A stretch of DNA of 64,000 nt. Source: an uncultured Candidatus Saccharibacteria bacterium. Its GTDB lineage: Bacteria > Patescibacteriota > Saccharimonadia > Saccharimonadales > 2-12-FULL-41-12. The first letter of the stretch is position 1. The number at the start of each line of letters is the position of its first letter. This document shows, piece after piece, positions 40 to 55,940 of the stretch. A model generated the notes under the pieces. It was not told the DNA's origin. It was given only the letters and a program-made list of their open reading frames with translations, and ran no database searches. The stretch is from contig CAZYMH010000005.1 of NCBI GenBank assembly GCA_964648105.1, positions 36 through 64,035 of the forward strand. The letters are read 5' to 3'. The position numbers and the translations under genes were made by a program.

Positions 40-114
40 TGGCTCGGGAGGCCGGACTCGAACCGGCAACCTCGAAGTTAACAGCTTCTTGCTCCACCAT
101 TGAGCTACTCCCGA
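40..114 (-). tRNA. tRNA-Asn (anticodon GTT), CCA encoded
   Basis: The reverse complement folds as a cloverleaf. Acceptor is TCGGGAG/CTCCCGA, D-arm GCTC/GAGC, anticodon loop CTGTTAA, T-arm GCCGG-TTCGAGT-CCGGC, and the 3' end is GCCA. Confidence 0.9.
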
Positions 115-201: not shown

Positions 202-666
202 TTAGTGAGTAAATTTTTTGACAGCGTTCATTGCATCGCGAGATTGGTCGCGTTTTTTGAGGAGTTCGCGTTTGTCGTATTTTTTGCGGCCTGTGCCAGT
301 ACTAATCCGTAATTTTATGTATTTTTGGTTAGTGACTATCTCTGTTGGTATGATGTTCTTACCTTGTTTTTTGGCTTCGATTAGCTCATCAAGTTCGCGT
401 TTTTTGAGCAATAATTTACGGGTGCGAACTTGCTCTGATTCGGTTAATTTACCACCTAAAAAGCCAGTGATTGTCGCATTGAGTAGGTACAGCTCATTGT
501 CTTTTACGACTACGTATGCCCCACGCAGGTGGCCATGGCCCAGCCTTAGAGATTTGGTTTCTCTGCCAGTCAAAACTAAGCCTGCTAAGTACGAATCTTT
601 TAGATTGTAGTCAAACTTAGCACGCTTGTTGGTTATTTTCTTGGTTTGGACTTGTTTTTTGGCCAT
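202..666 (-). CDS. smpB: SsrA-binding protein SmpB
   Basis: 154 aa. The N-terminus KRAKFDY, the stretch LAGLVLTGRETKSLR and the basic C-terminal tail are typical of SmpB. Confidence 0.9.
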   Translation of the reverse strand: MAKKQVQTKKITNKRAKFDYNLKDSYLAGLVLTGRETKSLRLGHGHLRGAYVVVKDNELYLLNATITGFLGGKLTESEQVRTRKLLLKKRELDELIEAKKQGKNIIPTEIVTNQKYIKLRISTGTGRKKYDKRELLKKRDQSRDAMNAVKKFTH

Positions 667-709
667 AAACTAATTATGAAGTAAATTGACAAAATTTACA
701 ATAGAGTAA

Positions 710-1894
710 TTAATATACTTTTCGCTCAGCACCAGTGTATTCAACATTTTCTTCGGCTAAGGCATTCACTTGATTGATTTTGGTTTTGGCGACGTCCCAT
801 AACTCTGGGTGGCCGTTTTGTTTGAGCCAATACCACCACTCTGGTCCCCACAAGTAAATCTCTTTAATACCCGTATCAAGTCCATACTGAATACGGCTAT
901 CTAGTCGTTCGGCGTCGACCGATTTGGTCATCTCGGGTATATCGTTAACTTGATTCATTTTGTAGCCTTTTGGCAACCACGCCTCTGTTTGTAGTTCGTG
1001 AATAACCATACTTTTACCCGATACAAGCTCGCCATAACCACCTAAACTAGAGTAAAACCATGGTGGATATGGGTATTCGAAGTAGCGTTTGGTGGCAGTC
1101 TTGTCCCATACTCGTTTATAGATAGAGACTGCAAATTGATCAGGTGTTGGCTGACGAAGTGGAATTCCTCCCCAGTTGTTGCTGCGGCTAATGATAAGTT
1201 TGTGATTTGGATCTAGTCGTTTGACCAAATCTGCTTCATAGACCAATCTATCTCGGCTAAAGTCGGTACATTCGCCAAAAACGCTCATAAAATACTCATT
1301 TTCGAGCTGATAACTCTCGAGAGCTGGGTTATCTTTGTAACGATTGACGGTGGCTTCGATATAGCGGTATAGATCTGCTCGCCACTGCTCAATCGGCCGA
1401 CCTTTGGCCCAAGCTGGCTCGTGACACTCTGGCCAACGAGGTTGACGCAGTCCAACTGCCAACGAAACTTTCGAACCAGACTCTTCGGCCTTTTTGAATT
1501 GCCAATCGAGTTCTGAGAAATCGTATGTGCCTTTGGTGGATTCAATATTTTTCCAGTAACTAACTAAGCGAAATTGTCTTATACCTAGGTCATTTATCAT
1601 CTCGTCCATCGTTACCTTGGGGTTTAGGCCAAAATAACGAGCGTAGTCTGGTACAAAGGTGGCTCCAAGCTTGGTCGGTTCGTTTTTGTGTTTGACAATA
1701 TAATATTTTCCACCTACATAAGTAAAAATAACTACTCCAACAGCTATAGCGACCAAAACTGTAAAAACTCGGTAAGTGATCGATAATTTTTTGAACAAAA
1801 TTATCAACTTAGGGTAAATATTGAGTGAACTTCTTGGAGTTGGTTTGGGCATAAATTTAGCTAAAATAATTTGAAAATCTGCTGGTAGCAGCAA
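710..1894 (-). CDS. Membrane-anchored TIM-barrel glycoside hydrolase (clan GH-A, GH5-like)
   Basis: 394 aa with an N-terminal TM helix (VFTVLVAIAVGVVIFTYV). LENEYF is an acid/base-type NE motif, and a second conserved Glu lies in IHELQTEAW. An alternative ATG start is at 1852. Confidence 0.6.
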   Translation of the reverse strand: MLLPADFQIILAKFMPKPTPRSSLNIYPKLIILFKKLSITYRVFTVLVAIAVGVVIFTYVGGKYYIVKHKNEPTKLGATFVPDYARYFGLNPKVTMDEMINDLGIRQFRLVSYWKNIESTKGTYDFSELDWQFKKAEESGSKVSLAVGLRQPRWPECHEPAWAKGRPIEQWRADLYRYIEATVNRYKDNPALESYQLENEYFMSVFGECTDFSRDRLVYEADLVKRLDPNHKLIISRSNNWGGIPLRQPTPDQFAVSIYKRVWDKTATKRYFEYPYPPWFYSSLGGYGELVSGKSMVIHELQTEAWLPKGYKMNQVNDIPEMTKSVDAERLDSRIQYGLDTGIKEIYLWGPEWWYWLKQNGHPELWDVAKTKINQVNALAEENVEYTGAERKVY

Positions 1895-1932
1895 CTGTTG
1901 TATAATATAAGCATAACAGTAATAAAAAAAAT

Positions 1933-2082
1933 ATGAAAGACAAAATACACAGTCTGTTTGAGCAACAAACCTTCGACGTCACTTGGAATTACGACCAATT
2001 GAATATTTGGGGTGCGGCGAAAATTTATTGGCCGTTTTTTATGTTTATGGTTTGTCAAAAGAAAGAAATCGATAAGTTATGA
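1933..2082 (+). CDS. Possible 49-aa upstream small ORF translationally coupled to the GT2 gene
   Basis: ATG at 1933. The TGA stop (2080-2082) overlaps the GT2 ATG (2079) as ATGA. It has a hydrophobic stretch IYWPFFMFMV, no obvious SD, and a TGTTGTATAAT extended -10-like box upstream at about 1905. Confidence 0.25.
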   Translation: MKDKIHSLFEQQTFDVTWNYDQLNIWGAAKIYWPFFMFMVCQKKEIDKL

Positions 2083-2891
2083 CTAAGCCAACTCTGTCGA
2101 TTGTTATACCAGTTTATAATGAGGAGTTTGATATAGCGGAGTGCTTGTGGTCGATTGCTCGCCAAACTACTCCGCCAGACGAAGTGATAGTTGTCGATAA
2201 CAACTCATCTGATAATTCGGTACAAATTGCTAGAAAGTTCAAATTTGTAACTGTTATTCGCGAGCCTAACCAAGGCATTGCATATGCCCGAAATGCAGGA
2301 TTTGATGCCGCCAAAAGCCAAATAATTGGCCGAATTGATGCCGACACTCGCCTAAAACCTGGTTGGGTAGAGACTGTTAAAAAGTATTATTCTAACGAAA
2401 ATAATTTGCAAACTGCCGTCAGTGGACAAGCATATCTGTACAACACTATCTGGCCCAAATTTGCAGGTCGAGTTCAGCACAGCTTTGCCTTCGAATATAA
2501 TAAGTTAATCTTGGGTAATTATATATTGTGGGGGTCGAATATGGCCTTGCCTAAATACTTGTGGGACGTTGTCAAAAGTGATACTTGTTTTCGGCGTGAT
2601 ATACACGAAGATATTGACCTGGCAATTCACCTTAGCCGCATGGGATTTAAAATAAATTATCGCAAGAGTATGTTGGTCGGAGTTCGGATGAAAAGAGTTA
2701 TGAACCAACGTAGCAGTTTATGGGGTAACTTAATGCTTTGGCCACGGACTTTTAGGGTTCATAATTATAGTTTGTGGATTTTAGCGTACTTAGGGGCAAT
2801 ATTACTTTATATCCTGTCTTTCCCTGTTCGTTTAACAGATTACTTCAGGATATATGCCCTAAATAAGCCTAAAAGAACTAGAAATTTTTAG
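2079..2891 (+). CDS. Family 2 glycosyltransferase
   Basis: 270 aa. LSIVIPVYNEE, the VVDNNSSD motif and RIDADT (DxD-type) are typical of GT2. Confidence 0.85.
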   Translation: MTKPTLSIVIPVYNEEFDIAECLWSIARQTTPPDEVIVVDNNSSDNSVQIARKFKFVTVIREPNQGIAYARNAGFDAAKSQIIGRIDADTRLKPGWVETVKKYYSNENNLQTAVSGQAYLYNTIWPKFAGRVQHSFAFEYNKLILGNYILWGSNMALPKYLWDVVKSDTCFRRDIHEDIDLAIHLSRMGFKINYRKSMLVGVRMKRVMNQRSSLWGNLMLWPRTFRVHNYSLWILAYLGAILLYILSFPVRLTDYFRIYALNKPKRTRNF

Positions 2892-2915
2892 TATACTTAA
2901 CTCTTATAAGGATAT

Positions 2916-4175
2916 ATGTTGAGAATTGGATTTTTTACCGATAGTTTTTACCCAAATACCAATGGCATAACTGTAATTGTTGATTCTATGCAAAAGAGTC
3001 TAATGCAGCTTGGCCACGAAGTTTATGTATTTGCTCCAAAACCTATCAATAAAAAAGATAGTAGTGTTCATGATTCGCGGTATATCAAACGGGTGTCTGC
3101 AATAAATGGCATGATTTATCATGAGCAATCGACTAGCATCTTCTTCCCTGCTCGCCAGTACTCTAGGGTCAAAAAACTAGATTTAGATGTGATTGTAGTT
3201 TTTACGCCCGCCCAAATTGGCATGCTGGGAAGTTACTGTGCCTTGAAGCAAAAAATACCGTTAGTTTCGTATTATTCAACCGATTTAGTTGAGTATATCG
3301 AGCAATATCCCAATGCAATTTTTGGAGTTTTGGCACTAATTAGCACCACTCCGATCGCTCTGCGTATGAAACCAAAAGAAATACTAAAATTATCTAAGCT
3401 AGCCATGCCCAGTATCAAACGAGATGAGAAGTGGCGAAAAAAAGTAGTTCGCGAGATGGTCAACGACTACCATAATAGATGTCAATATGTGATTGTGCCA
3501 TCTGTTAAATCTCATAATCAGATGAAATCTTGGGGCCTAAAAACGGCAGTGAGTGTGTTGCCTGCGGGAGTTGATCCTCCCAATGACCTAGAAGAGTTAA
3601 ATGGCGATGATTTTCGTCGTAAATACAAAATTCCTCCTCGAGTACCTGTGATTATGTATTTGGGACGTGTGGCCAAAGAAAAAAATATAGAATTAGCAAT
3701 AAACGCTATGAAAGATATTCTACCCAAAAACCCCGAAGTTTTTTTGGTGATTGTTGGAGATTTTGATTATCGCCGCGAACTAGAGAAAAAAGTGAAGCAA
3801 CTTAAGCTCGAAGCATCTGTCATCTTTACTGGCAAAGTCTCGTTTGAAGAACGTTGGCAAGCCTTCAGGGCGGCTAACATTTTTGTCTTTCCATCTGTTA
3901 CCGATACACAAGCTATAGTTATAAATGAGGCTGGATTATGCGAATTGCCGATAGTTTGGTGCGATGAACAAGTTAATGAGTTGCTAGTAGATGGCGTAAG
4001 CGGACAATTGTCGACTAATCACCCCAAATCGTTTGCTATTACAGTAAACAAACTTCTTAATGATAAAATTTACGCTCAATATTTAGCTCAAAATGCAAAA
4101 AATAATGCCCTCCAAATGAGCCAAATTAACCAAGCCAAAAAATTAATAAAAATCTTAGAGAAGTTAACAAAGTAA
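2916..4175 (+). CDS. Family 4 (GT-B) glycosyltransferase
   Basis: 419 aa. N-terminus is FFTDSFYPNTNGI. The C-terminal part has a GRVAKEKN-type motif and FVFPSVTDTQAIVINEA (an EX7E-like region). Confidence 0.8.
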   Translation: MLRIGFFTDSFYPNTNGITVIVDSMQKSLMQLGHEVYVFAPKPINKKDSSVHDSRYIKRVSAINGMIYHEQSTSIFFPARQYSRVKKLDLDVIVVFTPAQIGMLGSYCALKQKIPLVSYYSTDLVEYIEQYPNAIFGVLALISTTPIALRMKPKEILKLSKLAMPSIKRDEKWRKKVVREMVNDYHNRCQYVIVPSVKSHNQMKSWGLKTAVSVLPAGVDPPNDLEELNGDDFRRKYKIPPRVPVIMYLGRVAKEKNIELAINAMKDILPKNPEVFLVIVGDFDYRRELEKKVKQLKLEASVIFTGKVSFEERWQAFRAANIFVFPSVTDTQAIVINEAGLCELPIVWCDEQVNELLVDGVSGQLSTNHPKSFAITVNKLLNDKIYAQYLAQNAKNNALQMSQINQAKKLIKILEKLTK

Positions 4176-4181
4176 TCTTAC

Positions 4182-4751
4182 TCAGTAGTCGATACCAGGG
4201 TTGGCCAAATATTTTTGGTCGTAATGGTGTTTGAGTTTGTGCATTTCGGTAGCGATATCTACATACGGAAGTAATTCTTCTGGGAAATTGCGGCCAGTTA
4301 GGCACAAACTGGTTTGAGGCGATTTGTCTTTGATCATTTTTTTTAGCTGAGCTTTGGTGAGCAGTCCATCGTTAACTGCATTGTTAATCTCGTCGCAAAT
4401 AACTAGTTTGTACTTGCCAGAGGTAGCTGCCTTGTAGGCTTGATCGTAAGTGTCTTGAGCGGCTTGCTTATGCTGGGCTTTGGATATATTTGTTGCACTG
4501 AGGTCACCTGCATCATAAAAGCCCTTGCCTCCCTTATAAAAAAACAATTGGTCTTCATAGATCGATTGGATATCACGGATAAAATTATGCTCACCAACTC
4601 CCCAATATTTGATAAATTGGATAAATGCTACGTTCCAACGAGTCCCCAATGCTCTAACCATTAGCCCTAGTCCAGCTGATGTTTTGCCTTTGCCATCACC
4701 TGTATAAACCAACACAACACTATCTTTTGTCTTAAAATCCTCAAACGCCAT
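4182..4751 (-). CDS. cobO: Cob(I)yrinic acid a,c-diamide (corrinoid) adenosyltransferase, CobA/CobO/BtuR type
   Basis: P-loop YTGDGKGKTSAGLG and LVICDEINNA are family motifs. The start is taken at MAFEDF (4751); the 26 AT-rich codons upstream in the ORF track look non-coding. Confidence 0.75.
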   Translation of the reverse strand: MAFEDFKTKDSVVLVYTGDGKGKTSAGLGLMVRALGTRWNVAFIQFIKYWGVGEHNFIRDIQSIYEDQLFFYKGGKGFYDAGDLSATNISKAQHKQAAQDTYDQAYKAATSGKYKLVICDEINNAVNDGLLTKAQLKKMIKDKSPQTSLCLTGRNFPEELLPYVDIATEMHKLKHHYDQKYLANPGIDY

Positions 4752-4822
4752 ACTAATATTGTAAATGTCGTAAACATAAATATAAATTAGATTTTTGGAT
4801 AAGTACGTGTTATAAAAATAAA

Positions 4823-5746
4823 ATGACACATGGTGAATTACCGAATGAATCTAATCGATCAATCGAAAATTTGAGGGAACAATTTTTTCTACCCAGTGGT
4901 GTGCTGGATAATTCCTCATTAGATATACCAGGTGCAAATAAAAATGAACTTGAGTTACTGGAAAGTTTAATTGTTAGGAAAAATAGTTTTAGAGGATTTT
5001 CGATATATGGCGACGAAACAGAAGACGAGAAGATATCGGTAGTTAGTAAAGTATGTGAAAAAAACGGTATCGACTTGGTGGTTGGCAGATTTCGAAATTA
5101 TCCGATACATAATTATGCTCAAGGTTCTGATCGAGTGCTACGGAGTTTTATCGATGAAGCCTACCAAGTTGATTCTAATAAGCCGCTTATGATTGTTTTG
5201 GCTGGTTTGCAAAACTATTTGATAAGAGTTAATGAGGGGGCTGAGAAACAATACGAAGATCGAGAGTATGATTATCGAAAAGGTGCTTTTCATCGGAGTT
5301 TAGCCGAAGTAATATCCAACTCATTATATATTTACCCTAAATTAATGCTTTGCTCACCTATCATTGGTATAAGTAAAACTTTGCCAAGCAGTTTTTTGAG
5401 CGATGGTGTGTTTACTGAATTTTCTGAAATCAATAAACCCAATAAATCAGCTCGAAAAAAATTGATTTTGGCCACTATCGCTGAGCATGAGTTAGATGAA
5501 GTTTACAGGGGTTACAATGGAATATTTGATGCCGAGGAAGATGTTGAATTTGTTCACAGGATTGTAAAGTCAACCAAAAATAAATCAACTCAGGAAATAA
5601 AAGATGCAATATTACGTGCTTTGAATAACTTCAAAGATGGAGTTTACGAATATCAAAATTCAAGCGACCAAAGCGTTCCGAACGAAAACGTACCAAGCAT
5701 TACCATGAGAAATTTGTGGCAATTAGTCTGTCTTTCTCCAAAATAA
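4823..5746 (+). CDS. Hypothetical protein; layout resembles an AAA+-type ATPase with both Walker motifs degenerate
   Basis: 307 aa. GFSIYGDETEDEKIS sits where a GxxGxGK[ST] P-loop would be, and PLMIVLAGLQN sits where a hhhhDE Walker B would be. Similarity is judged by eye only. Confidence 0.35.
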   Translation: MTHGELPNESNRSIENLREQFFLPSGVLDNSSLDIPGANKNELELLESLIVRKNSFRGFSIYGDETEDEKISVVSKVCEKNGIDLVVGRFRNYPIHNYAQGSDRVLRSFIDEAYQVDSNKPLMIVLAGLQNYLIRVNEGAEKQYEDREYDYRKGAFHRSLAEVISNSLYIYPKLMLCSPIIGISKTLPSSFLSDGVFTEFSEINKPNKSARKKLILATIAEHELDEVYRGYNGIFDAEEDVEFVHRIVKSTKNKSTQEIKDAILRALNNFKDGVYEYQNSSDQSVPNENVPSITMRNLWQLVCLSPK

Positions 5747-7294: not shown

Positions 7295-7843
7295 ATGATC
7301 AATTTATTAATTACCAATTTTGCTAGCGAGGCGGCCGAAGGTGGCAGTGCTTTGTCGGCCCTAGGAGTCGATGGCAAAGCATTTTTGATTCAGTTTATTA
7401 CTTGGATTTTAGTATTTGTGATATTGATAAAATTTGTTTTTCGACCAGTAATTAACCTGCTCGAAAAACGTCGCAAAACTATCGGTCAAGGTATCGAACT
7501 AACCTCTGAAATGTTGGAAGAAAAAGCTAAACTCGATAAAGAGGTCGAGAAAACTATGGCTCAAGCTCGAGCTGACGCCAAGGATATTGTTGCCAAAACT
7601 CACGAACAAGCCAAAGAAATTATCAAAGAGGCCGAAAACCAAGCAAAAACTAATGTTGACGCTATGGTCAAAGATGCCAAATCAAAGATCAATGATGAGT
7701 CACTAAAAGCTCGACGATCTTTAGAAAAAGACATTGTCAATTTAGTCGTCGAAGCAACTGAAATTGTCGCCAGCCAAAAAATCGATGCCAAAAAAGATGC
7801 CGAGCTAATCAACCAAGCTTTGAAGGGTAAACTAAATGGCTAA
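7295..7843 (+). CDS. atpF: F0F1 ATP synthase subunit b
   Basis: 182 aa. One N-terminal TM helix is followed by a long charged Ala/Lys/Glu-rich helix, in the expected operon position. Confidence 0.85.
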   Translation: MINLLITNFASEAAEGGSALSALGVDGKAFLIQFITWILVFVILIKFVFRPVINLLEKRRKTIGQGIELTSEMLEEKAKLDKEVEKTMAQARADAKDIVAKTHEQAKEIIKEAENQAKTNVDAMVKDAKSKINDESLKARRSLEKDIVNLVVEATEIVASQKIDAKKDAELINQALKGKLNG

Positions 7844-8222
7844 ATACTCGCGTTCTGAGCTAGTTAAGTACATTGCCAATAATTTGAGTAAGGCTGACTT
7901 GCCAAATAAAACAGCAGCTTTTTTGATCGATAATAACAAAGCCAGCGAACTAGATTCGATTATGCGAGACGTAAACGAACTTCGTAAGAAAAATCAAGCA
8001 ACTAGCGAGGTAACAGTCAAAACTGCTCACCCATTAACACCGGAAATCCGCCGTCAAATTGAATATACTATCAAATCGCAATTTCCAGATGTCAACCAAG
8101 TTATTTTACATGAAGTTATTGACCAAAAAATAATTGGCGGAATTGTACTAGAATTTGCCAATGAAGTTATTGACGCAAGCGTTCGCGGCAAACTAAATAA
8201 ACTTAAAGAAGCAATATTATGA
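7836..8222 (+). CDS. atpH: F0F1 ATP synthase subunit delta (OSCP), unusually short
   Basis: 128 aa. The C-terminal IIGGIVLEFANEVIDASVRGKLNKL matches the OSCP signature. It overlaps atpF by 8 nt (ATGGCTAA). Confidence 0.8.
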   Translation: MAKYSRSELVKYIANNLSKADLPNKTAAFLIDNNKASELDSIMRDVNELRKKNQATSEVTVKTAHPLTPEIRRQIEYTIKSQFPDVNQVILHEVIDQKIIGGIVLEFANEVIDASVRGKLNKLKEAIL

Positions 8223-8323
8223 AATTAAATTTGAGTGTACTGAGGAATTGTGAGTCAAAAGTTAGAATCATCTGCCTTTTGTCTCATGGTTCGTGAGTGT
8301 AATAGTTTGAAGGGAGTAAATAA

Positions 8324-9850
8324 ATGAGTGAAATTAATGTAAAAGAATTATCGAACGAAATTAGACAAGCCATATCAGGTCTAAAAAACCAGCCCGAAGT
8401 CCAAAATGTTGGTGTAGTAACCAGAGTCGGTGATGGCGTAGCCTGGATTTATGGGCTGCGTGATGCTGGGTTTAATGAAGTGCTTGAGATCGAGAATTCC
8501 GATGGTACTAAAGTCACGGCTTTTGCCCTTAACTTAGGCGAAAATGAAATCGGTGCTGTAATTTTGGGCAGTGATCTTGGCGTTAAAGCTGGCTCAAAAG
8601 TATCTCTAACTGGTAAAAGTTTGCAAATTCCAGTTGGCAAAGAGATTTTGGGGCGTGTAGTTGATCCGCTTGGCAATCCACTTGACGGCAAAGGACCGCT
8701 GAAGACTAAGCAAACCAACCCGATTGAGCGAAATGCTATAGGTGTGTTAGGCCGAAAAGGTGTCCACGAGCCTTTAATGACAGGTATTACCGCGATTGAC
8801 GCTCTTGTACCAATTGGACGGGGCCAGCGTGAGTTGATCATCGGGGATAGGCAAACTGGTAAGACAGCAATTGCTGTCGATACTATGATTAACCAACATC
8901 GTCAAAAAACTGGTGTCTATAACATCTATGTAGCAGTTGGCCAAAAAGCGTCGAAGGTCGCCAGAATTGTCGAGCGGCTCAAGCGTGAAGGTGTTATGGA
9001 TCAAACCGTAGTAGTTTCTACATCAGCTTCAGACCCAGCAGCAATGCAATATTTGGCTCCTTATGCAGGAACGGCGATCGGCGAATATTTCCGAGATAAT
9101 GGCGAGCATGCTTTGATTATTCATGATGATTTATCAAAACATGCCAATGCTTATCGGCAAATGAGCTTATTATTGCGTCGTCCACCAGGTCGCGAAGCCT
9201 TCCCTGGTGACGTATTTTATCTTCATTCACGTTTACTCGAGCGAGCCTCAAAATTATCCGATAAATTAGGTGGTGGTTCACTAACAGCCTTGCCGATTAT
9301 TGAAACCCAAGCTGGTGATATCTCAGCTTATATCCCAACTAACGTCATTTCGATTACTGATGGTCAAATCTTCCTCGAGACAAACTTGTTTTATCAGGGT
9401 ATTCGACCTGCTATTTCGGTCGGTACATCGGTGTCGCGTGTTGGTGGCTCAGCCCAAACCAAGGTAGTTAAACAAGCTTCGGGTGGCTTGAAGTTAAGCT
9501 TGGCTCAATTTCGTGAACTTGCGGCGTTTGCCCAATTCTCTACAGATCTTGATGCCGACACTAAACATCGTATCGAGCGCGGTCGCCGACTGACTGAGCT
9601 GCTAAAACAACCACAATACTCGCCATTCGCTATCTGGGAACAAGCTGCCATGCTATTTGCAGCTAACGATGGAGCCTTTGATGATGTGCCTGTCGAAAAA
9701 ATCAACGAAGTTCGCGATAGTTTGCTAGGTGAACTCAAACGATCTCACAAAAAATTGGTTGATCTATTAAATTCTGGTGACAAGCCAGACGACAAGACCG
9801 TCGAGACAATCACTAAAGTGGCCAAAGATATCGCTAAGGGTTACAAATAA
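8324..9850 (+). CDS. atpA: F0F1 ATP synthase subunit alpha
   Basis: 508 aa with Walker A GDRQTGKT and full-length alpha-subunit sequence character. Confidence 0.97.
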
Positions 9851-9881
9851 TGCATAAGAATAATTGCTAGGAGAACTTTAA

Positions 9882-10757
9882 ATGGCTAATACAACTTCGC
9901 TAAAAAGACGAATTGGCTCGGTCAAAAACACCAAGCAAATTACTAAAGCTATGGAACTTGTGGCAGCTTCCAAGATGAAAAAAGCTCAAGATCAAGCTTT
10001 GGCGTCGAGGAACTATCGGATTGCGGCTGGTGATTTGCTGAGGAAACTGAGCAGTGTTAGTGATGTCGAGCGAAATAGCTTGTTTGAGCTACGAGAAATC
10101 AAAAAAAGTTTATTCGTGATAATTACTAGTGATATAGGATTAGCGGGGGCTTATGATGCCAATGCTCTCAAGCAAATTACCGTGAAATTACGTGAAAACC
10201 ATCATAAATCAATCAAAAATCAAGTGATAGCTATCGGTAAAAAAGGTTCTCAATTTTGCTCGAAACTTAAAAATGTTGATATGATTGCTAGTTTCCCTGC
10301 TTTTGGCACTCAGCCAAAAGGGTCAGATATACGGCCAATTGTCCAAACTATTTTGGATAAATATGAATCACAAGAAGTCGACCAAGTAGTAATAATTTAT
10401 ACAAAATTTATATCTAGTATCAACCAGACGGTTGAAAGTCTCCAAATTTTGCCTGCTCGCTCACCTGTTGAAGATAAAAAATTATCAGAACTTGAAGTTG
10501 CTATTTTTGAGCCATCGATCGAATCGATTATCGAGTCTTGCGTTAAGCGATTGATTGAAGTTCAGATCTGGCAAGCGATTTTAGAAAGTATGGCCAGCGA
10601 ATTCTCGTCAAGAATGATGGCTATGAAAAACGCTACTGACAATGCCAATGATATTATTGATGATTTGACGCTAGAGTTCAACACTGCTCGTCAAGCGGCA
10701 ATTACTCAAGAAATTGCTGAAATTGTTGGCGGAGCAGAGGCAGTTAAGGTAGATTAA
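9882..10757 (+). CDS. atpG: F0F1 ATP synthase subunit gamma
   Basis: 291 aa. N-terminus has IGSVKNTKQITKAMELVAASKMKKAQ and the C-terminus has ARQAAITQEIAEIVGGAEA. Confidence 0.95.
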   Translation: MANTTSLKRRIGSVKNTKQITKAMELVAASKMKKAQDQALASRNYRIAAGDLLRKLSSVSDVERNSLFELREIKKSLFVIITSDIGLAGAYDANALKQITVKLRENHHKSIKNQVIAIGKKGSQFCSKLKNVDMIASFPAFGTQPKGSDIRPIVQTILDKYESQEVDQVVIIYTKFISSINQTVESLQILPARSPVEDKKLSELEVAIFEPSIESIIESCVKRLIEVQIWQAILESMASEFSSRMMAMKNATDNANDIIDDLTLEFNTARQAAITQEIAEIVGGAEAVKVD

Positions 10758-10812
10758 GATAAATTATATGAGAATAGCATGATGGTAATAGAAAATATAG
10801 ACGAATTTTTAG

Positions 10813-12209
<1,397 letters not shown>

Positions 12210-12210
<1 letters not shown>

Positions 12211-12638
12211 TGGCTTTGCAACTGCAAATTATTCATCTTAATGGAGTTTTCACCGATCGGGCGATTTTTCAGATCGATGTGCCAACTACCGCTGGCCCAA
12301 TCGCTATCAACGAAGGACATGCTCCTTTAGTTGGTGACATCAAACCAGGAATTGTCACTATTATCAATAAAAAAGGCGATGCTCAGAGTCACCACGAAAA
12401 CCTCGCAATTTACGAAGGCACTGTTGAAGTTTTGAATAATAACGTAACAATTCTCGTTGATGATGTTGATACCCCTGAAGAAATCACTGAAGCCGAAGCT
12501 CAAAAGGCATACCAGCGAGCCAAAGACCTGACCTCTAAGTCAGGCAAAGCTGTTGAGCTAGCCGAAGCTCATAGTATGATGGACCGCTCGGCCGTTCGTT
12601 TGCAACTAGCTAGCCTAAAACGCCGCCGTCGATCATAA
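12210..12638 (+). CDS. atpC: F0F1 ATP synthase subunit epsilon
   Basis: 142 aa. Its ATG overlaps the atpD stop (TAATG). It has beta-sandwich plus helical-hairpin character. Its last 68 nt include the left copy of the 58-bp repeat. Confidence 0.9.
12571..12628 (+). repeat. 58-bp direct repeat, left copy (inside the atpC 3' end); candidate attL
   Basis: ATAGTATGATGGACCGCTCGGCCGTTCGTTTGCAACTAGCTAGCCTAAAACGCCGCCG is identical to 15363-15420. Confidence 0.95.
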
Positions 12639-12741
12639 TCAGTCGCCTAACCGTGTCTTCTTTATGTATGCTGTGTATTATTAAGTAGATTTATCTTTAA
12701 TGATTTTTTGGAGCAATCTAAATATGTGTGATGGTTAGTGA

Positions 12742-14079
12742 CTATTTTTCGTCCGCTAATTCTGATATTTCTTTTACGGCAGAAGCAATAATGCATAGTT
12801 CATCAAAACTTGCTTGTTTTGGCAGATTTACCTTTAGGTCTAAAGCTAATTCTACCCCATGTTTAATAGTCATATTTTGCTTTTTGCCAAGATTGTCGAT
12901 CATCGACTTATAGTCAACTTTTTTATTATTATTTTTGTATAAGTGCATTCGATATGCCTGGATTGTCTGTTTGACAATGTACGATGTCGAGTTAGGTTTC
13001 TTGTAGTATTGCTGTAACTGTTTGTTGATTTCGTTTTCTAATGAACATAGGACTAAGCTAGCTTCATTTTTTACTGAGCTAAACGGTGGAGGTGCAACTT
13101 GTATGTTTTCTTTTGACAAGCGAATATAATCATAAAATAATTCATGAAGAAATATGTATTTTCTGTTCCTACGAATTAAAATTTTATTGAAATCCTCAAC
13201 ACGATTAATACTAAAAGAGACTTTTACTTCGTAATTAGTACTGAAATAATCACTAATATTGTGCAATGTTTTGTAGTAATCAACGCTGACGTTGCCGATT
13301 AACAATATATCAATATCAGATTGTTTACTTATTAGTTGTGGGTTTAGTAGACTTCCCCAGCAGTAGATAGAAAGTTCGATTTCAGCCAACTGCGAAGCTG
13401 TATATATCTTAGCTAGCGTAAGTATTACAGTTAATCTAGCCAAATTATTGTAGTAACTGTCAATATTGTGTTTACCATGACTTGTGGCAAACAATCCTAG
13501 GTATGGTTTTTCTTTATTGATAGCTTGGATTTTGTCAATAAAATTTTGGCTATACTTTGAGGGGTCATTCTTTGAGTAAGAGATTAATAATGGCACCTCT
13601 ACATCTTTCATGCCCTTAAACCAGCCCAAAGTATCTTTGTTGTTTGGGTGGTTTTGTAGCTCATTTTTTGACTTTTTTAGGTTGGCATTTATTTTTTTGC
13701 TTTGATGCAATTGGTTGATTAATTCAAAAAAATCGTTTTTTATGTGTTTCGTTTCTAGGCTTTGTATTGGAGAGAATAGTAATATAGCCTCACATTTCTT
13801 AAGGAGTGTCGGCTCGATCTGATTGAGAATGTATGTCGAGAATGAGTATGCGATTACTACAAAAGGCTTGTTGTTGGCTGTCATTTTTTGGAGTTCTTTT
13901 TTAACAGATTCGATACAGGCCGAAACAGAAAAAGATTGGTCGCTTCTTTTATCGAATCCAGGGTACGAATGATAATAAATAGTGGCTCCAGCTTTTCTGA
14001 AATCTTGCAGAACTAAGTATTGTTTGTGGGTACTCGGAATGCCAGGCAAAAAGAGTACTTGCAGGTTAAGTTTGTCCAT
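12742..14079 (-). CDS. Fusion protein: N-terminal alpha/beta-hydrolase-like domain plus Pol-beta-superfamily nucleotidyltransferase and a helical C-terminal domain
   Basis: 445 aa. The hydrolase part has VLFLPGIPSTH, the nucleophile-elbow-like VVIAYSFSTY, and later SKNDPS and SHGKHN. The NTase motif is GSLLNPQLISKQSDIDILLIG (G[GS]-x9-13-DxD). Confidence 0.55.
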   Translation of the reverse strand: MDKLNLQVLFLPGIPSTHKQYLVLQDFRKAGATIYYHSYPGFDKRSDQSFSVSACIESVKKELQKMTANNKPFVVIAYSFSTYILNQIEPTLLKKCEAILLFSPIQSLETKHIKNDFFELINQLHQSKKINANLKKSKNELQNHPNNKDTLGWFKGMKDVEVPLLISYSKNDPSKYSQNFIDKIQAINKEKPYLGLFATSHGKHNIDSYYNNLARLTVILTLAKIYTASQLAEIELSIYCWGSLLNPQLISKQSDIDILLIGNVSVDYYKTLHNISDYFSTNYEVKVSFSINRVEDFNKILIRRNRKYIFLHELFYDYIRLSKENIQVAPPPFSSVKNEASLVLCSLENEINKQLQQYYKKPNSTSYIVKQTIQAYRMHLYKNNNKKVDYKSMIDNLGKKQNMTIKHGVELALDLKVNLPKQASFDELCIIASAVKEISELADEK

Positions 14080-15298
14080 ATATTAATTGTATTCCATCAT
14101 TAATTTTTTCTAACATTTCTTGGCTAGGACATTCCCCTGGAGTACATTTGCTGGATAAAGTTTTGCGTATTAGTGTGCTTGTGTCGTTGATCGCCTCATC
14201 TGTTTTTGTAATTGCCGCTTTCTGCAAATTTTCCGTTAATAAATCTGTGATTTCGGGGTGAGTCTTAGATCCATCATATTTAGCTGCATAAGCTCTTATG
14301 TTTCTAAACTTCACCTTTGTACTAGAATATTGCTTATACCTACGATCTAATTCCTCAGAGCTTATTCCTTTTGTCTTTGACAATGCTAAAAGTGGTACAA
14401 ATTTCGTAAAGAAATCAATGTCCCAATTATTTAATATTGTTGATATGTCAATATTGTTTGGAATATAGCTGACTAGTGCGTAGTGTATCGGTATGTCGGG
14501 CGAAACCGTTGTCGTGTATGGTGCAATATTTCTAACTGCACTCTGACCAACTAGCATAACAATATGATTTAACCCTTCGTATTTTTCTATTAACATTTCT
14601 GGCATTAAACTCAAGGCGATTTTCGGATCTAGCACCATTTTATTGCTGCCAATGAAATCTAGGGATAATCCATTTTTTCGTGGTCTCTCAATCCAGGCTT
14701 TTTCTGGCAGTCCAGCAAGCACCCCCTTTAAGTAGTTATGGTTACCTGGTGAAATAATAGGTATATTGCTTGCGTCTAAAGACAGAGATAGGTAGAGATG
14801 ATCGCGTTTTTCGTTTCTGAAATCACATTCCTTACAGTCAGGACATGTCAGCTTAGATAAATTTTTCCCTACTGCCAGAGAAGTATCACAGTTGTTACAT
14901 ATAGTCATCTCCTTGCGTGAGGTCGTTATTTTACCATCTTCATGCATTCGCACTATTTTTTCTTTTATCCAAGCCTGTGTGTCGTCATCACTATCTGCGA
15001 TAATCTTTGCTTGCTCTTGAATGCCCAAATTATTTTTAAGAAAGTCACGCCTTTCGGCTAATAACCTATCAAAAACCTGTGTCCTATCGGTGGGGTTATC
15101 AGGATATGCATCATCCATTTTTTTGCCATAGTTATTCCATAACTCTACCCGTAGAGTGTCACCGTTCGTCAAATAGGATTTGATACCATTAAGCACTCTG
15201 GCGGCTAAAAGTGGCGTTAATCTTTCTAACTGCTGGGCAAAGTTATCTCTATTTTGACTTGCGGCACTAATATAGACAGTGTCTTTACTAAATTCCAT
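14066..15298 (-). CDS. Class Ia (MetRS-like) aminoacyl-tRNA-synthetase paralogue lacking HIGH and KMSKS; retains a CxxC...CxxC zinc knuckle
   Basis: 410 aa. The zinc knuckle is CNNCDTS...CPDCKEC followed by EKRDHLYLSLS (compare the MetRS knuckle plus hyFFrLS). AWIERPRKNGLSLDF resembles W.ISR..WG, and HIVMLVGQSA resembles h.iGkDi. There is no His in the first ~118 aa. It overlaps the next gene by 14 nt. Confidence 0.5.
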   Translation of the reverse strand: MEFSKDTVYISAASQNRDNFAQQLERLTPLLAARVLNGIKSYLTNGDTLRVELWNNYGKKMDDAYPDNPTDRTQVFDRLLAERRDFLKNNLGIQEQAKIIADSDDDTQAWIKEKIVRMHEDGKITTSRKEMTICNNCDTSLAVGKNLSKLTCPDCKECDFRNEKRDHLYLSLSLDASNIPIISPGNHNYLKGVLAGLPEKAWIERPRKNGLSLDFIGSNKMVLDPKIALSLMPEMLIEKYEGLNHIVMLVGQSAVRNIAPYTTTVSPDIPIHYALVSYIPNNIDISTILNNWDIDFFTKFVPLLALSKTKGISSEELDRRYKQYSSTKVKFRNIRAYAAKYDGSKTHPEITDLLTENLQKAAITKTDEAINDTSTLIRKTLSSKCTPGECPSQEMLEKINDGIQLIYGQT

Positions 15299-15309
15299 AA
15301 TATCAACAT

Positions 15310-15318
15310 ATTATAACA
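15310..15318 (-). promoter_or_regulatory. Extended -10 box (TGTTATAAT) for the cassette operon
   Basis: The minus strand reads TGTTATAAT, then 11 nt, then the ATG at 15298. There is no SD, which implies a very short or leaderless 5' UTR. Confidence 0.35.
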
Positions 15319-15362
15319 TCTTAACGCTAGAAATACAGGTGTTGTGCAGTTTTTGATAATTT

Positions 15363-15420
15363 ATAGTATGATGGACCGCTCGGCCGTTCGTTTGCAACTA
15401 GCTAGCCTAAAACGCCGCCG
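15363..15420 (+). repeat. 58-bp direct repeat, right copy; candidate attR and orphaned ancestral atpC end
   Basis: Identical to 12571-12628. In the atpC frame it would read ...SMMDRSAVRLQLASLKRRRK-stop. Confidence 0.95.
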
Positions 15421-15554
15421 CAAATAAAATACTTGAACTGTTAAATAAACAGGAGTATTCTATTTATTTAGTTAATTAAGTAAAATATGAGGAAATAAAA
15501 GTGCCAAGAGAATTTTTTCCAGTTAATAATACGGAAAATCACGAAGGAGAAACA

Positions 15555-16556
15555 ATGACAATAACAGTCGAAACAATCGCACCAAATGGACTTGGGTACG
15601 GCGAAGGAAGTATATCTGCTAAAAATGCCGAAGCTGAACTGGTCAAAAAAGTCGAAGATGCGTCTAAAGACCCTAGAGCAAATATAAAAATCAGCAATGT
15701 CGACTATGATACATGTTCGGACGGAAGATGTACATCTTGTATTCAGTGCATTAAAGACGGTGAGATCAAACAGAGCTTTGAGCAAACGTTCTGTTATAAA
15801 TCATTTGGTAGCGGCATAACTATGGGTGTCGCAGGAAATATTGCAGTTGGCAATAACCAAATAAGTACGGTTGCTGGTCAATTTGATGTATCTAGTAAAA
15901 CGTTCGATAAAACCGATGGTTTAGAGTACGCTGTTCATTCATCTGATCACGCATCTGGAAATGACAGTGGTTGTGGAGCTATCGACAATGCCCCTGTAAT
16001 TTTGAAAAATGCCATCAAGTATAAACAACAAATTATTGATACAATGGCGGCTGTTTTTGGTGAAAATAGTCACACTGACAGCTACATGCAAGCTTTGCAT
16101 GACACTTACGCTAATTTTGAAGAGTTTGTTGTAACCGATGATTTTAAGAACGAAGAATATGCTGGTGCCGATATTGTAGGTCATATTGCTGAGTCAGGCC
16201 GAAAAGTAAAAGTCCTCAGTGGCTCACACCGTGAACTAAGAGTTCGGATCAATGTTGATATCGATGAACACACCACCAACCAAGCTTTTATCCGTGAAGC
16301 AGCCAATGACGAAGCACAGATTTTTGCTGTAGATGTACCACGAATGAAGCAAATAGCCGATAAAATGCATCATTCACTCGATAATAAGCGTAAAGCATTG
16401 ATGGGCATGATGATTTATAGTCTAGCGACAGCAGCCACCTTAACCGACGGCACACTGCCAGTCGACAAAATTTATGCCAAATACCCTTGTCCAAGTGCCG
16501 ATGTCTTTAAATCACACAAAAAAACCAAAGCTAAAGCCAAGTTTGCAACTGTCTAG
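15555..16556 (+). CDS. Hypothetical protein with a Cys cluster (C-x4-C-x2-C-x2-C) and an HSSDH...SGCGAID motif
   Basis: The start is set at ATG 15555, 6 nt after GGAG; the ORF track starts at an upstream GTG (15501). No family was recognised with confidence. Confidence 0.6.
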   Translation: MTITVETIAPNGLGYGEGSISAKNAEAELVKKVEDASKDPRANIKISNVDYDTCSDGRCTSCIQCIKDGEIKQSFEQTFCYKSFGSGITMGVAGNIAVGNNQISTVAGQFDVSSKTFDKTDGLEYAVHSSDHASGNDSGCGAIDNAPVILKNAIKYKQQIIDTMAAVFGENSHTDSYMQALHDTYANFEEFVVTDDFKNEEYAGADIVGHIAESGRKVKVLSGSHRELRVRINVDIDEHTTNQAFIREAANDEAQIFAVDVPRMKQIADKMHHSLDNKRKALMGMMIYSLATAATLTDGTLPVDKIYAKYPCPSADVFKSHKKTKAKAKFATV

Positions 16557-19895: not shown

Positions 19896-20267
19896 TTATC
19901 TTGCTGAATATGCAGGAGTAACTTCTTCGTTCTCTTCTAATTCAAGAGCTTCGATGCCGAAAATGGCTGATGCCTCTAGGAACATAATGGCATCGAGGAT
20001 GTCTAATCTGTTATTAATCAGTGAATTTAGTGAGAAAGCGAAGATTAAAAATGCTAACACACCCAAAAATCTACGATAAGCCAGCGAGCGAGGCGGATTA
20101 GTTAATAGTAAACTTATTAGTACACCTATAAGAGCGAATCTAATTATGTTTAACCCTGAGTTAACTCCGAAAAATTCGGCCATATTTTGATCAATAATAC
20201 CTTTTGTGCCAAATGATAAGATTGCTAGTAATAATATTGATGAGACGATGATTGCTTTTTTTATCAT
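19896..20267 (-). CDS. Small integral membrane protein (about 4 TM), unknown function
   Basis: 123 aa and hydrophobic. GGAG lies 7 nt upstream of the ATG. Confidence 0.6.
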   Translation of the reverse strand: MIKKAIIVSSILLLAILSFGTKGIIDQNMAEFFGVNSGLNIIRFALIGVLISLLLTNPPRSLAYRRFLGVLAFLIFAFSLNSLINNRLDILDAIMFLEASAIFGIEALELEENEEVTPAYSAR

Positions 20268-52037: not shown

Positions 52038-52442
52038 TTAATTTATGTGGTGGCTAGAATGGTTTTCGTCGGTAGAAGAATTATTTGTGTTGGGAATTTC
52101 ATCTTTGATTGTTTTTTGTTCGTAATTTTTAGTTGTGTTCATGTCCATATTGTAGTGCAGATTACTCATAATCCATATCGAACCAATGACTAAAGTAGCT
52201 ATTGCAAAAACAGTATAATAAAAGGCCAAACTATCCCATTTCGGGCCTTTGCTTTGTCCGATATGCAAGAAAAACATCAACTGAACTACCAACTGTATAG
52301 CGGCTAAAATTCCAATAAATATATATACTCCCTTGCCAGAAATTTGGTTATTCATAACCATAATGAACGCCAATAACGTAATAACCAAAGAAATACTAAA
52401 GCCAATTAAGTATTTTTTGAGTTGATTGTTGATTGTACTCAT
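52038..52442 (-). CDS. cyoD: Cytochrome o ubiquinol oxidase subunit IV
   Basis: 134 aa with 3 TM. Its start overlaps the cyoC stop as ATGA, and it is in the expected operon position. Confidence 0.75.
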   Translation of the reverse strand: MSTINNQLKKYLIGFSISLVITLLAFIMVMNNQISGKGVYIFIGILAAIQLVVQLMFFLHIGQSKGPKWDSLAFYYTVFAIATLVIGSIWIMSNLHYNMDMNTTKNYEQKTIKDEIPNTNNSSTDENHSSHHIN

Positions 52443-53035
52443 GAGCCTGCTCCTGCTAAATATACAACTGAAAAAATAAATATCCAGACGATATCCAAGA
52501 AATGCCAGAATAAACTAAATAACATTAGTCGCTTGTAGATAACTTTATTTAGCCCATTCTCGACTATTAGACCAATTAGTACGGCTGCCCAAATCAAGCC
52601 GATTAAAATATGCAAACCATGTGTACCGACTAAAGTAAAATAGCTCGATAAAAATGCACTCGTTTGCCAGCCATGTCCGTCAGCAACTAGTTTAGAAAAT
52701 TCATGAACCTCCATACTCAAGAAGCTAACTCCAAGCACTAAAGTGATACTTAAAAATATCAATGCTCTATTTTTGTTGTCGTATTTTGCAAATAAAAGCA
52801 TTAAACCAGCTGTTAAGCTACTAATTAATAGTAAAATTGTTTCTACCAATATATATGGCAAGTCAAAAATCTCTTTGCCGCTTACACTGCCATTAGTACT
52901 GTTTTTTAGTACTGCATAAGTCGCAAAGAGCGTAGCGAATACTAAACAGTCGGTCATAATGTATATCCAAAATCCTAATCCGATTTTTTCAGATGGACTC
53001 TTGAAAGTTTTTAGCGATTCACTTATTGTACTCAC
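52439..53035 (-). CDS. cyoC: Cytochrome o ubiquinol oxidase subunit III
   Basis: It has 5 TM and YFTLVGTHGLHILIG. A GTG start at 53035 sits 8 nt after GGAG and overlaps the cyoB stop as GTGA. Confidence 0.85.
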   Translation of the reverse strand: MSTISESLKTFKSPSEKIGLGFWIYIMTDCLVFATLFATYAVLKNSTNGSVSGKEIFDLPYILVETILLLISSLTAGLMLLFAKYDNKNRALIFLSITLVLGVSFLSMEVHEFSKLVADGHGWQTSAFLSSYFTLVGTHGLHILIGLIWAAVLIGLIVENGLNKVIYKRLMLFSLFWHFLDIVWIFIFSVVYLAGAGS

Positions 53036-55032: not shown

Positions 55033-55940
55033 TAGTAACTCTGTCCTTCCATTTGGGGTTGCATCGGCGATGACATTTCATTTGAACTATGACCCATTCC
55101 TTTATGAAGTACATAATCAAAGAGATTATTATCGCTTAATTTATATTCTTTAAGTGATTTATCGGTCGACTTTTCAGCAATTTGGTCGTAAGTTTCTGAA
55201 TTTAAATTCTCGTCGGAATTTTGGACAGTCGAGACCCACTGATTAAATTGTGAATCAGCAACCGAATACACATTGAAATTCATATCCGAAAAGCCCTCGC
55301 CGCTAATATTTGCCGAAACTCCTTTATACACTCCATCCTGACTTGCCTCCAGACTAAGTTGTGATTTCATACCACTCATTGCATAAATTTGCCCACCTAG
55401 ATCTGGAATCCAGAATGAATTCATTGGAGCATCAGACGTAATTTCGAAATTCACTGGTCGATTTGTAGGAATTTTGAGGTAGTTTAAAGTAGCAATGTTC
55501 TGTTCAGGATAAATAAATAACCAACGCCACTGTGTAGCGACTACTTGGACTTTTAAGGGTTGTTCGGTGGAGCTAATTTTCTTAAATGGATCTAAATTAT
55601 GACTTGAATTCCAGGCGACGATCGATAGTATCAAGATAATAATAATCGGAATTCCCCACCAGACTGTCTCTAAAATTTTGTGTGTATCCCAATTTGGACT
55701 ATATTTGTTATTTTTGCTCTCGCGATATTTGTAAGCAAAGAAAAAAGTTAAGAAAAAAACCGGTAATATTACAACTAATGATAAAATTGTTGCGAATCTT
55801 AGTAAATCGTATTGTTCTTTAGCAATAGTTCCTTTGGGATTTAGCAAGCTAGCATCACTGGTTAATAAGTAGTATAAACAGTAGAAGAAAATAGCAAACG
55901 CAAGTATTGCTACGAATCTAACATACAACCCCTTTTTCAT
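55032..55940 (-). CDS. cyoA: Quinol oxidase subunit II (CuA site absent)
   Basis: 302 aa with 2 TM plus a cupredoxin domain. The CuA ligand positions read NSFWIP and SANISGEGFSDM instead of H...CxExC..H..M. Confidence 0.85.
   Translation of the reverse strand: MKKGLYVRFVAILAFAIFFYCLYYLLTSDASLLNPKGTIAKEQYDLLRFATILSLVVILPVFFLTFFFAYKYRESKNNKYSPNWDTHKILETVWWGIPIIIILILSIVAWNSSHNLDPFKKISSTEQPLKVQVVATQWRWLFIYPEQNIATLNYLKIPTNRPVNFEITSDAPMNSFWIPDLGGQIYAMSGMKSQLSLEASQDGVYKGVSANISGEGFSDMNFNVYSVADSQFNQWVSTVQNSDENLNSETYDQIAEKSTDKSLKEYKLSDNNLFDYVLHKGMGHSSNEMSSPMQPQMEGQSY

Follow-up and report, generated by a model that had tools for sequence, protein, structure and literature searches.

Cis-mobilizable elements (CIMEs) are decayed integrative and conjugative elements (ICEs) or integrative and mobilizable elements (IMEs) which keep the attachment sites attL and attR while being devoid of integration and transfer genes (PMC5704250), and integrative elements that target coding sequences have an attP which carries a fragment of the target gene, with repeat blocks of up to 250 bp (PMC7192596). 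Arrays of partial tRNAs and integrase-less remnants, as described for the tycheposons of Prochlorococcus, are the footprint of serial site-specific integration (bioRxiv 10.1101/2020.12.28.424599). Here we describe a 2.8-kb cassette that resembles each of these systems in part. It lies at the 3' end of atpC, the gene for ATP synthase epsilon, in an uncultured Candidatus Saccharibacteria bacterium, and comprises a two-gene operon (genes A and B) enclosed by two perfect copies of a 58-nt direct repeat. The analysis covered a window of 64 kb, that is, the whole 64,000-nucleotide stretch from contig CAZYMH010000005.1 of assembly GCA_964648105.1. A further likeness is offered by the staphylococcal pseudo-SCC (staphylococcal cassette chromosome) elements at the 3' end of rlmH (orfX), which are small cargo units bounded by direct repeats, without ccr, and are presumed to be mobilised in trans.

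The atpC cassette resembles a CIME in that its flanking direct repeats take in the 3' terminus of the target, it is devoid of genes for integration or transfer, the target remains intact and related cassettes stand in tandem arrays with partial target copies between them, as in accretion. A CIME is, however, defined by descent from a known ICE or IME with an acting integrase, whereas no cognate integrase or parent element was found here, and the cassette is a 2.8-kb, single-operon unit in a Saccharibacterium host in which conjugative machinery is not evident. As in integrative genetic elements (IGEs), for example those with icd as target, an incoming fragment would restore the reading frame and leave a repeat block together with a displaced, orphan gene end; direct repeats are found at both ends, one of them in the target, and uninterrupted sites exist in two relatives, in a comparison across species. 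The definition of an IGE nevertheless calls for at least one internal integrase gene, and there is none between the 58-mer copies. With tycheposons the element shares a streamlined genome and cargo beside a conserved gene, and the arrays at two related loci (L034 and L005, described below) look alike; tycheposons, in contrast, have tyrosine-recombinase and replication modules and mostly tRNA targets, whereas the window element has neither module and sits at an ATP-synthase gene. SCC elements have known recombinases (Ccr, of the large serine type) and a known integration-site sequence, while no equivalent of either was identified for the atpC cassette. Integrase-less remnants flanked by att sites are thus known; what is new is the atpC target and an undescribed, conserved A-B pair which recurs in genomes resembling those of the candidate phyla radiation (CPR). 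Within the literature searched, nothing was found that describes the A-B pair, cassette arrays in Saccharibacteria or the use of atpC for attachment.

Duplication of the atpC end and empty sites in relatives

The 58-mer ATAGTATGATGGACCGCTCGGCCGTTCGTTTGCAACTAGCTAGCCTAAAACGCCGCCG is present at 12571-12628, inside the 3' end of atpC, and again at 15363-15420, on the same strand and identical at 58 of 58 positions, with a start-to-start distance of 2792 nt. These are the only two matches in the window at up to 3 mismatches (0 in 100 shuffles), and apart from this pair the 64 kb contain no exact direct repeat of 28 nt or more. The atpC gene (12210-12638, plus strand) encodes 142 aa (Pfam ATP-synt_DE_N, E=1.2e-15), the same length as AtpC of the relative L010. 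Whereas the expressed gene ends CTA AAA CGC CGC CGT CGA TCA TAA (LKRRRRS-stop), the distal copy read in the atpC frame ends CGC AAA TAA (LKRRRK-stop). Both the perfect, same-orientation repeat and the two different gene ends had been claimed in an earlier note made from the sequence, and both were recovered when the two copies were read out. The left junction consists of GAAGCTC, the 58-mer and TCGATCATAA, and the right junction of GATAATTT, the 58-mer and CAAATAA.

Between the copies there are only two minus-strand open reading frames (ORFs), gene A (14066-15298, 410 aa) and gene B (12742-14079, 445 aa), and two non-coding ends of 113 nt and 64 nt. The two genes overlap by 14 nt and therefore form an operon, so that the ORF listing agrees with the earlier description of the interior as an opposite-strand, two-gene operon and nothing else. 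The left non-coding end (12629-12741) contains the stop codon that atpC now uses and the spacer towards the convergently oriented gene B, and has neither a terminator-like site nor a significant fold; its first 10 nt (12629-12638, plus strand) are the last of atpC (codons ..R-S-stop) and come from the insert, the rest of atpC being native. The right end (15299-15362, minus strand) is a promoter-like region. Here TGTTATAAT, the reverse complement of 15310-15318, stands on the minus strand 11 nt upstream of the gene A ATG, which places the extended -10 where the earlier note had seen it, and a consensus promoter scan returned a minus-strand site with TG that overlaps it. An extended -10 at 11 nt from the ATG would give a leader of only about 4-5 nt, and we infer from the sequence that TGTTATAAT is a promoter-like element of the cassette's own, with a predicted promoter function.

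The integrated state is supported by two independent ENA assemblies. Their contigs L002 (12146-12878) and L003 (12146-12762) run at 100% identity from the end of atpD through atpC and the full 58-mer into the cassette, which they enter for 134-250 nt, and such a left junction is impossible for a circle plus an empty site. Both contigs, although from different assemblies, begin exactly at 12146 in the end of atpD, which could reflect a strain-level breakpoint or shared reads.

Relatives were found by an AtpC scan of species-representative genomes, the closest found being two Saccharibacteria metagenome-assembled genomes, L010 and L011, with AtpC identities to the window of 87% and 65%, respectively. 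In L010, an 87-nt spacer separates atpC from a 356-aa homologue of the conserved hypothetical 351-aa gene which flanks the insert in the window (15501-16556, plus strand), and a UvrD-like helicase and a trehalase come after this homologue; the gene order in L011 is the same, with a 353-aa homologue after atpC. By blastn both genomes are collinear with the window on either side of the cassette, and by tblastn there is no trace of A or B at either locus. Empty sites of the kind that the earlier note had envisaged, with atpC directly followed by the 351-aa gene, thus exist, their tails ending K-stop or KS-stop, and instead of all relatives carrying both genes behind atpC, L010 and L011 are without them.

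The same two genomes indicate which of the copies is native. Their atpC tails, KRRRKS-stop and KRRKK-stop (AAATAA), resemble the distal KRRRK-stop and not the proximal CGT CGA TCA TAA, and the spacer between the distal stop and the 351-aa gene is 73 nt, compared with 87 nt in L010. Taken together, the tail and the spacing indicate that the distal copy and everything to the right of it represent the original arrangement. The tails and spacers after the repeat show no significant homology to the spacers downstream of atpC in L010 and L011 (p = 0.26-0.96); they are too diverged, and the native side is therefore told only by the stop-proximal codons and the spacing. These comparisons support a lineage-specific insertion, in which the proximal repeat is the attL-like junction core and the distal repeat, with its orphan tail CAAATAA (..R-K-stop; 15363-15427, plus strand), is the attR-like, displaced original end of atpC, a role which the earlier note had already assigned to it. 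The inserted unit corresponds to 12629-15362 plus one 58-mer, or 2,792 bp (2,734 bp unique).

The 351-aa protein is Cys-rich and uncharacterised, with synteny conserved in L010 and L011 and without a Pfam, NCBIfam or PHROG family; a short ENA contig (L036) considered as a junction was ruled out, as it is the 3' end of this gene. Between the UvrD-like helicase and the trehalase of the window there is a 123-aa minus-strand ORF (19896-20267) with no family match, which is missing from the syntenic region of L010, where the gap between helicase and trehalase is 78 nt. It looks like a second small lineage-specific insertion, and no flanking repeat was noticed.

One part of the earlier note did not stand, namely the low G+C content of the insert. 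The cassette interior has 35.3% G+C against 36.6% for the window, its G+C at third codon positions (GC3) is 0.34-0.35 against 0.32+/-0.04 for the window genes, and its tetranucleotide distance falls at the 84th percentile of equal-sized windows, all of which is host-like. The strongest compositional outlier is the ATP-synthase operon (7500-12600), with up to 47% G+C and the largest tetranucleotide distance, and the contrast seen in the hand count resulted from comparing the cassette with these unusually GC-rich genes. Composition neither supports nor excludes a foreign origin, and a donor of similar composition is likely.

Genes A and B and related cassettes at other gene ends

The gene A family was collected by a hidden Markov model search from a small alignment, which gave 140 representatives, 43 of them used for AlphaFold2 modelling; the resulting model (predicted local distance difference test, pLDDT, 93.5) replaced an unusable model from 3 sequences (pLDDT 41). 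Foldseek comparison of this model with the PDB gave best matches that were all methionyl-tRNA synthetases (MetRS), among them that of T. thermophilus (2d54/1woy, E=1e-12, TM score 0.72-0.74, full length), at an identity to MetRS of 10-15%, and the profile of gene A reached MetRS and leucyl-tRNA synthetase in the PDB (MetRS 5gl7, E=4e-6). Gene A is like a class I MetRS in its full-length fold with a Rossmann catalytic part, in its helical C-terminal domain, which stands where MetRS has the anticodon-binding domain, and in a connective-peptide zinc knuckle whose four Cys (C134, C137, C152 and C155) are invariant in the family. It is unlike MetRS at the HIGH position, which reads ISAASQNRDNF (SAxxQNRDNF) with no His and has the family consensus SAPxQNRDxF, in its constant pairing with a hydrolase-nucleotidyltransferase, and in its sub-threshold Pfam score, with tRNA-synt_1g matched by one of the 43 family members at 16.4 bits against a cut-off of 20.1. 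The position of KMSKS could not be located. Normal synthetases, for example the cysteinyl-tRNA synthetase CysRS, are encoded separately in the window. As judged from the predicted structure, gene A is a remodelled MetRS scaffold and not a synthetase, and the protein is predicted to bind, probably, tRNA or an aminoacyl-adenylate.

Gene B reads as a putative fusion of an alpha/beta-hydrolase to a minimal nucleotidyltransferase of the Pol-beta type, followed by a helical C-terminal region. In the N-terminal part S79 (AYSFS), D172 and H204 are invariant in 6 homologues, one of which is named 'esterase/lipase' in its source, and the profile finds alpha/beta hydrolases in the PDB weakly (E=0.04-0.1). 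The central part conforms to the motif hG[GS]x9-13Dh[DE]h, with invariant G242-S243...D255-I-D257 (GS...DIDL, 242-257); the profile finds the nucleotidyltransferase 1ylq in the PDB (E=4e-5), and three of the six gene B members match Pfam Polbeta/NTP_transf_2 (Polbeta 2.4e-5 in relatives). A HEPN domain in the C-terminus, which in HEPN-MNT toxin-antitoxin pairs has a conserved Rx4-6H motif, was considered and found no support, as the profile finds no HEPN/KNTase structure and the candidate R-x5-H is not kept in L034 or L033. Against PADLOC-DB 2.0 gene A gave nothing and gene B only PDC-S09 (E=0.011-0.034), in an alignment of some 50 residues at the nucleotidyltransferase motif; no described defence model fits the pair.

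Detectable homologues of A and B numbered two or three each in a word-indexed search of 5.8 billion proteins. A and B were adjacent in every sufficiently long homologous locus, on many CPR-like contigs, and this conserved partnership indicates a functional system. The pair is often followed by a gene C, a histidine-phosphatase/APH-like kinase, and some loci have a sugar-phosphate nucleotidylyltransferase. The neighbours include toxin-antitoxin pairs, DUF3800, DNA methyltransferases, rolling-circle Rep and large serine recombinases, and are typical of variable or defence islands. From folds and neighbours we would predict, with low confidence, that A-B has an accessory role in conflict or defence, in which nucleotidyl transfer and ester hydrolysis would be directed at a substrate that is either tRNA-like or a small molecule.

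The question raised by the earlier note, of whether the cassette occurs at other loci, can be answered in that homologous A-B cassettes are found behind an ABC ATPase gene, a tRNA-Asn and a tRNA-Ser, and this recurrence of repeat-flanked A-B cassettes strengthens their reading as mobile units. In L025 an A-B-C operon lies between 134-nt direct repeats that are 91% identical, the upstream copy being the 3' end of a 209-aa ABC-transporter ATPase gene, and in L024 the ABC-ATPase 3'-end repeat around the cassette is 129 nt long and 100% identical; homology between L024 and L025 is confined to the repeat-cassette-repeat unit, with unrelated flanks. The L025 copies differ at 12 sites, of which 11 fall on the third base of a codon, and the peptides that they encode are the same over 43 aa (about 5e-5 by chance). 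This almost purely synonymous pattern argues that the copies stem from two functional alleles and not from a decaying local duplicate, although it could also come from later allelic replacement of the upstream gene. Upstream of its cassette L024 keeps only the last 177 nt of the ABC-ATPase gene (7714-7890), and L021 has, at that place and with the same flanks as L024, the whole FtsX/FtsX/ATPase operon (1274-4589); L024 appears to be a deletion derivative, and L025 to have operon plus cassette in another context.

At the tRNA loci the repeats contain tRNA 3' ends. In L005/L006 the repeats on either side of an A-B-C-D operon measure about 230 nt and include 21 nt from the 3' end of a tRNA-Asn(GTT) that borders the island (900-14972 in L005). 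A gene for a large serine recombinase (13413-14939) runs with its stop region into the 3' end of this tRNA (14898-14972, minus strand), at least 7 partial tRNA-Asn-like repeats lie between the cassettes, and the island also encodes Rep (REP_ORF2-G2P), DUF3800 and a set of four minus-strand paralogues whose N-termini are nearly identical. The array in L008 likewise has a large serine recombinase gene beside it. In L034/L035 the repeat, 72 nt in five copies that separate the cassettes, joins a terminator-like hairpin to some 12 nt from the acceptor (3') end of tRNA-Ser(GCT). The L034 array (8396-13916) holds HSP20, ParE-RelB, PIN with a 97-aa gene, A-B-histidine phosphatase and a 188-aa gene, and ends at the real tRNA-Ser (13888-13980, minus strand), with no recombinase on the 14.8 kb examined. 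A further unit, in L029, is a distant version of the system and lies between 51-nt direct repeats (124-174 and 5087-5137) that are 94% identical. Its domains are split (508-5050) among four genes, whose products are an A homologue (421 aa), an alpha/beta-hydrolase carrying GASFGG (237 aa), a protein with a pair of nucleotidyltransferase motifs (503 aa) and one further protein (313 aa). Between the repeats themselves no recombinase was found in L024, L025, L005/L006, L034/L035 or L029.

At its very start the window contains a tRNA-Asn(GTT) of its own (40-114, minus strand), beside smpB; the same type of tRNA anchors the L005 island.

Proposed site-specific integration and its alternatives

The explanation we favour, with confidence that is about even, is that the cassette is a CIME-like decayed remnant or a satellite element which integrated site-specifically at the end of atpC. 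A circular DNA carrying the same 58 bp would have undergone a single reciprocal crossover with the chromosome (Campbell-type) in the last codons of atpC, and this crossover was most likely site-specific rather than homology-driven. It would have joined the native body of atpC to an incoming tail (..RRRRS-stop; attL-like), so leaving atpC intact, and would have pushed the original end (..RRRK-stop), its spacer and the 351-aa gene 2.8 kb downstream (attR-like). We infer the circular intermediate and the class of enzyme, as well as an integrase that would either have disappeared as the element decayed or have acted in trans from a helper. In favour of this reading are the exact repeat, the empty sites of L010 and L011, the left junction seen in independent assemblies, the repeat-bounded A-B cassettes at other gene ends and the large serine recombinase genes beside the arrays of L005 and L008. 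The abrupt difference of the proximal tail after the repeat, with AtpC nonetheless staying at 142 aa, fits an attP that carries a fragment of the target gene, and the synonymous divergence in L025 is what would be expected if one copy had arrived with the element from another functional allele. The 100% identity of the orphan copy, which is non-coding, points to a recent event or to gene conversion.

Several observations weigh against site-specific integration. Among the ORFs of at least 110 aa in the 64-kb window, essentially all of which were compared with Pfam and the unannotated ones also with PHROGs, none showed an integrase, resolvase or transposase domain; the scans returned housekeeping and envelope genes only, and hence no trans-acting enzyme was identified. 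A and B have no recombinase or transposase match in Pfam, PADLOC, NCBIfam or PHROGs, and the insert ends have no terminal inverted repeats (TIRs), so that the earlier statement that nothing between the repeats resembles an integrase, a transposase or a TIR holds after family scans and a comparison of the ends. The 58-mer is without a convincing core-type dyad, and neither it nor the ends of the cassette fold beyond what shuffled sequence does (z = 0.1 to 1.0, with z = -1.2 for the L024 repeat); Rfam has no family in 12000-16000. Repeats from different loci have no common core, the one exception being that those of L034 and L005 resemble each other in a tRNA-like way; one recombinase cannot explain all of them, and several independent integrase losses have to be assumed. 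Neither an empty site in the same species nor a circular junction or a second locus was found, the hypothetical AtpC ending ..KRRRK is absent from a collection of 15 billion proteins, and a degenerate 58-mer pattern gave 0 matches in viral and JGI metagenome contig collections. The host-like composition means that a foreign origin is not independently supported. Finally, a RecA single crossover or an in-situ duplication would equally well give perfect identity and an abrupt boundary, and an in-frame stop 3 codons past the repeat has a chance of about 1/4 in such AT-rich DNA.

Other classes of mobile DNA were considered and rejected. Integron gene cassettes have an attC that is an imperfect palindrome forming a single-stranded hairpin, with IntI and attI nearby; the window has no attC-like fold and no IntI-like ORF. 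The IMEX modules are flanked by 28-bp dif-like XerC/XerD sites which are shared between modules; here the site repeats share no core, no dif-like dyad was recognised by inspection, and the 58-mer is atpC coding sequence. Transposons and insertion sequences are marked by a transposase, TIRs and a target duplication of 2-14 bp; here there is no TIR and no transposase, and the duplication is 58 nt. As to a phage origin, A and B gave only a marginal PHROG match (E=0.0025) and the viral contig scan was empty.

The alternative that survives best, which we regard as somewhat unlikely, is a Campbell insertion driven by homology, in which circular or concatemeric DNA with the cassette and at least 58 nt of the atpC 3' end would have recombined via RecA without any site-specific recombinase; recombination between the repeats could then re-excise the cassette as a circle. 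The lack of a recombinase in the cassette or the 64 kb speaks for such an event, as do repeats of varying length (51-230 nt) and unrelated sequence across sites, as if only homology mattered, and the 100% identity of the repeats here and in L024. Saccharibacteria are naturally competent and could have taken up such DNA, and the window has genes for RecR and for a protein with a TfoX_C/HHH domain. Homology alone, however, does not account for the first linkage of the cassette to the 3' end of a new target gene, nor for repeats that always end at the extreme 3' end of a gene with its function preserved, and the arrays of tRNA 3'-end repeats in L034 and L005 are a classical integrase footprint. 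A length of 58 bp, moreover, comes close to the minimum at which RecA recombines efficiently, which counts against this alternative.

A long target duplication arising in situ is improbable in our judgement. A staggered break, or some unknown transposition or repair, would have been filled in over 58 nt, with no incoming atpC sequence and with a chance stop kept by selection. The identical copies and the abrupt end of similarity agree with this, the intergenic tails are without significant homology to relatives on either side, and at 36% G+C an in-frame stop within a few codons is appreciably likely. To our knowledge, however, no prokaryotic transposition gives duplications of 50-230 nt, neither TIRs nor a transposase is present, and the L025 copies, which differ almost only synonymously (11 of 12), are a better fit to two functional alleles.

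It is very improbable that the locus is an assembly artefact, with a separate circle or another location threaded through the shared 58-mer. The exact A and B proteins are present on one NCBI contig (81 kb) and a few Logan and ENA contigs, the source organism being rarely sampled. Logan contigs break inside both 58-mer copies, as a k=31 graph requires: L004 corresponds to 12599-15392 (2734+30+30 = 2794 nt) and L001 begins at 15391. Given breaks within the repeat, these contigs cannot separate an integrated copy from a circle plus an empty site, and no independent contig spans the right junction, both of which would leave room for an artefact. Against it stand the two ENA assemblies, which span atpC, 58-mer and cassette at 100%, and the same architecture in unrelated contigs from other assemblers. 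Least credible of all is an ancient fixed locus, with A and B vertically inherited behind atpC and the repeat incidental, since host-like G+C, GC3 and tetranucleotides would suit it but L010 and L011 are syntenic without A and B, homologues are extremely rare and always in variable, repeat-flanked contexts, and a non-coding 58-nt copy at 100% identity indicates a recent event or ongoing conversion.

Other genes of the window and the meaning of the cassette

Two further regions of the window are of note. At 52439-55940 a COX3-like protein, a 666-aa ORF, a COX2-like protein with a COX_ARM motif and a UbiA prenyltransferase are encoded, which suggests an aerobic respiratory oxidase in the source Saccharibacterium. 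Farther on, a conserved segment of 38 nt (57821-58999) is common to two neighbouring GT4 glycosyltransferase paralogues (56993-58111 and 58104-59237), which also have a weak Pfam 'GT4-conflict' match.

Beyond the single locus, we raise as a tentative and rather doubtful proposal that Saccharibacteria and related ultra-small bacteria keep a pool of recombinase-less cassettes (A-B, toxin-antitoxin and others) which would be shuttled between the 3' ends of tRNA genes and those of essential genes for proteins, such as atpC or an ABC ATPase, either by a recombinase encoded elsewhere or by competence and RecA, giving an integron-like economy without attC or a linked integrase, and that A-B would be an undescribed tRNA-directed conflict system within it, based on a synthetase whose catalytic part has been remodelled.

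Little has been described of the ways in which CPR/Patescibacteria, whose genomes are tiny and contain few recognisable mobile elements, acquire accessory genes, and the atpC locus provides an acquisition event in an essential operon that is resolved to the base pair. If cassettes of this kind are indeed moved by a trans-acting enzyme or by competence, this would constitute a general route of gene flux and possibly a 'landing pad' logic for engineering. The conserved A-B pair, built on a MetRS scaffold without HIGH, is a candidate for a new conflict or modification system.

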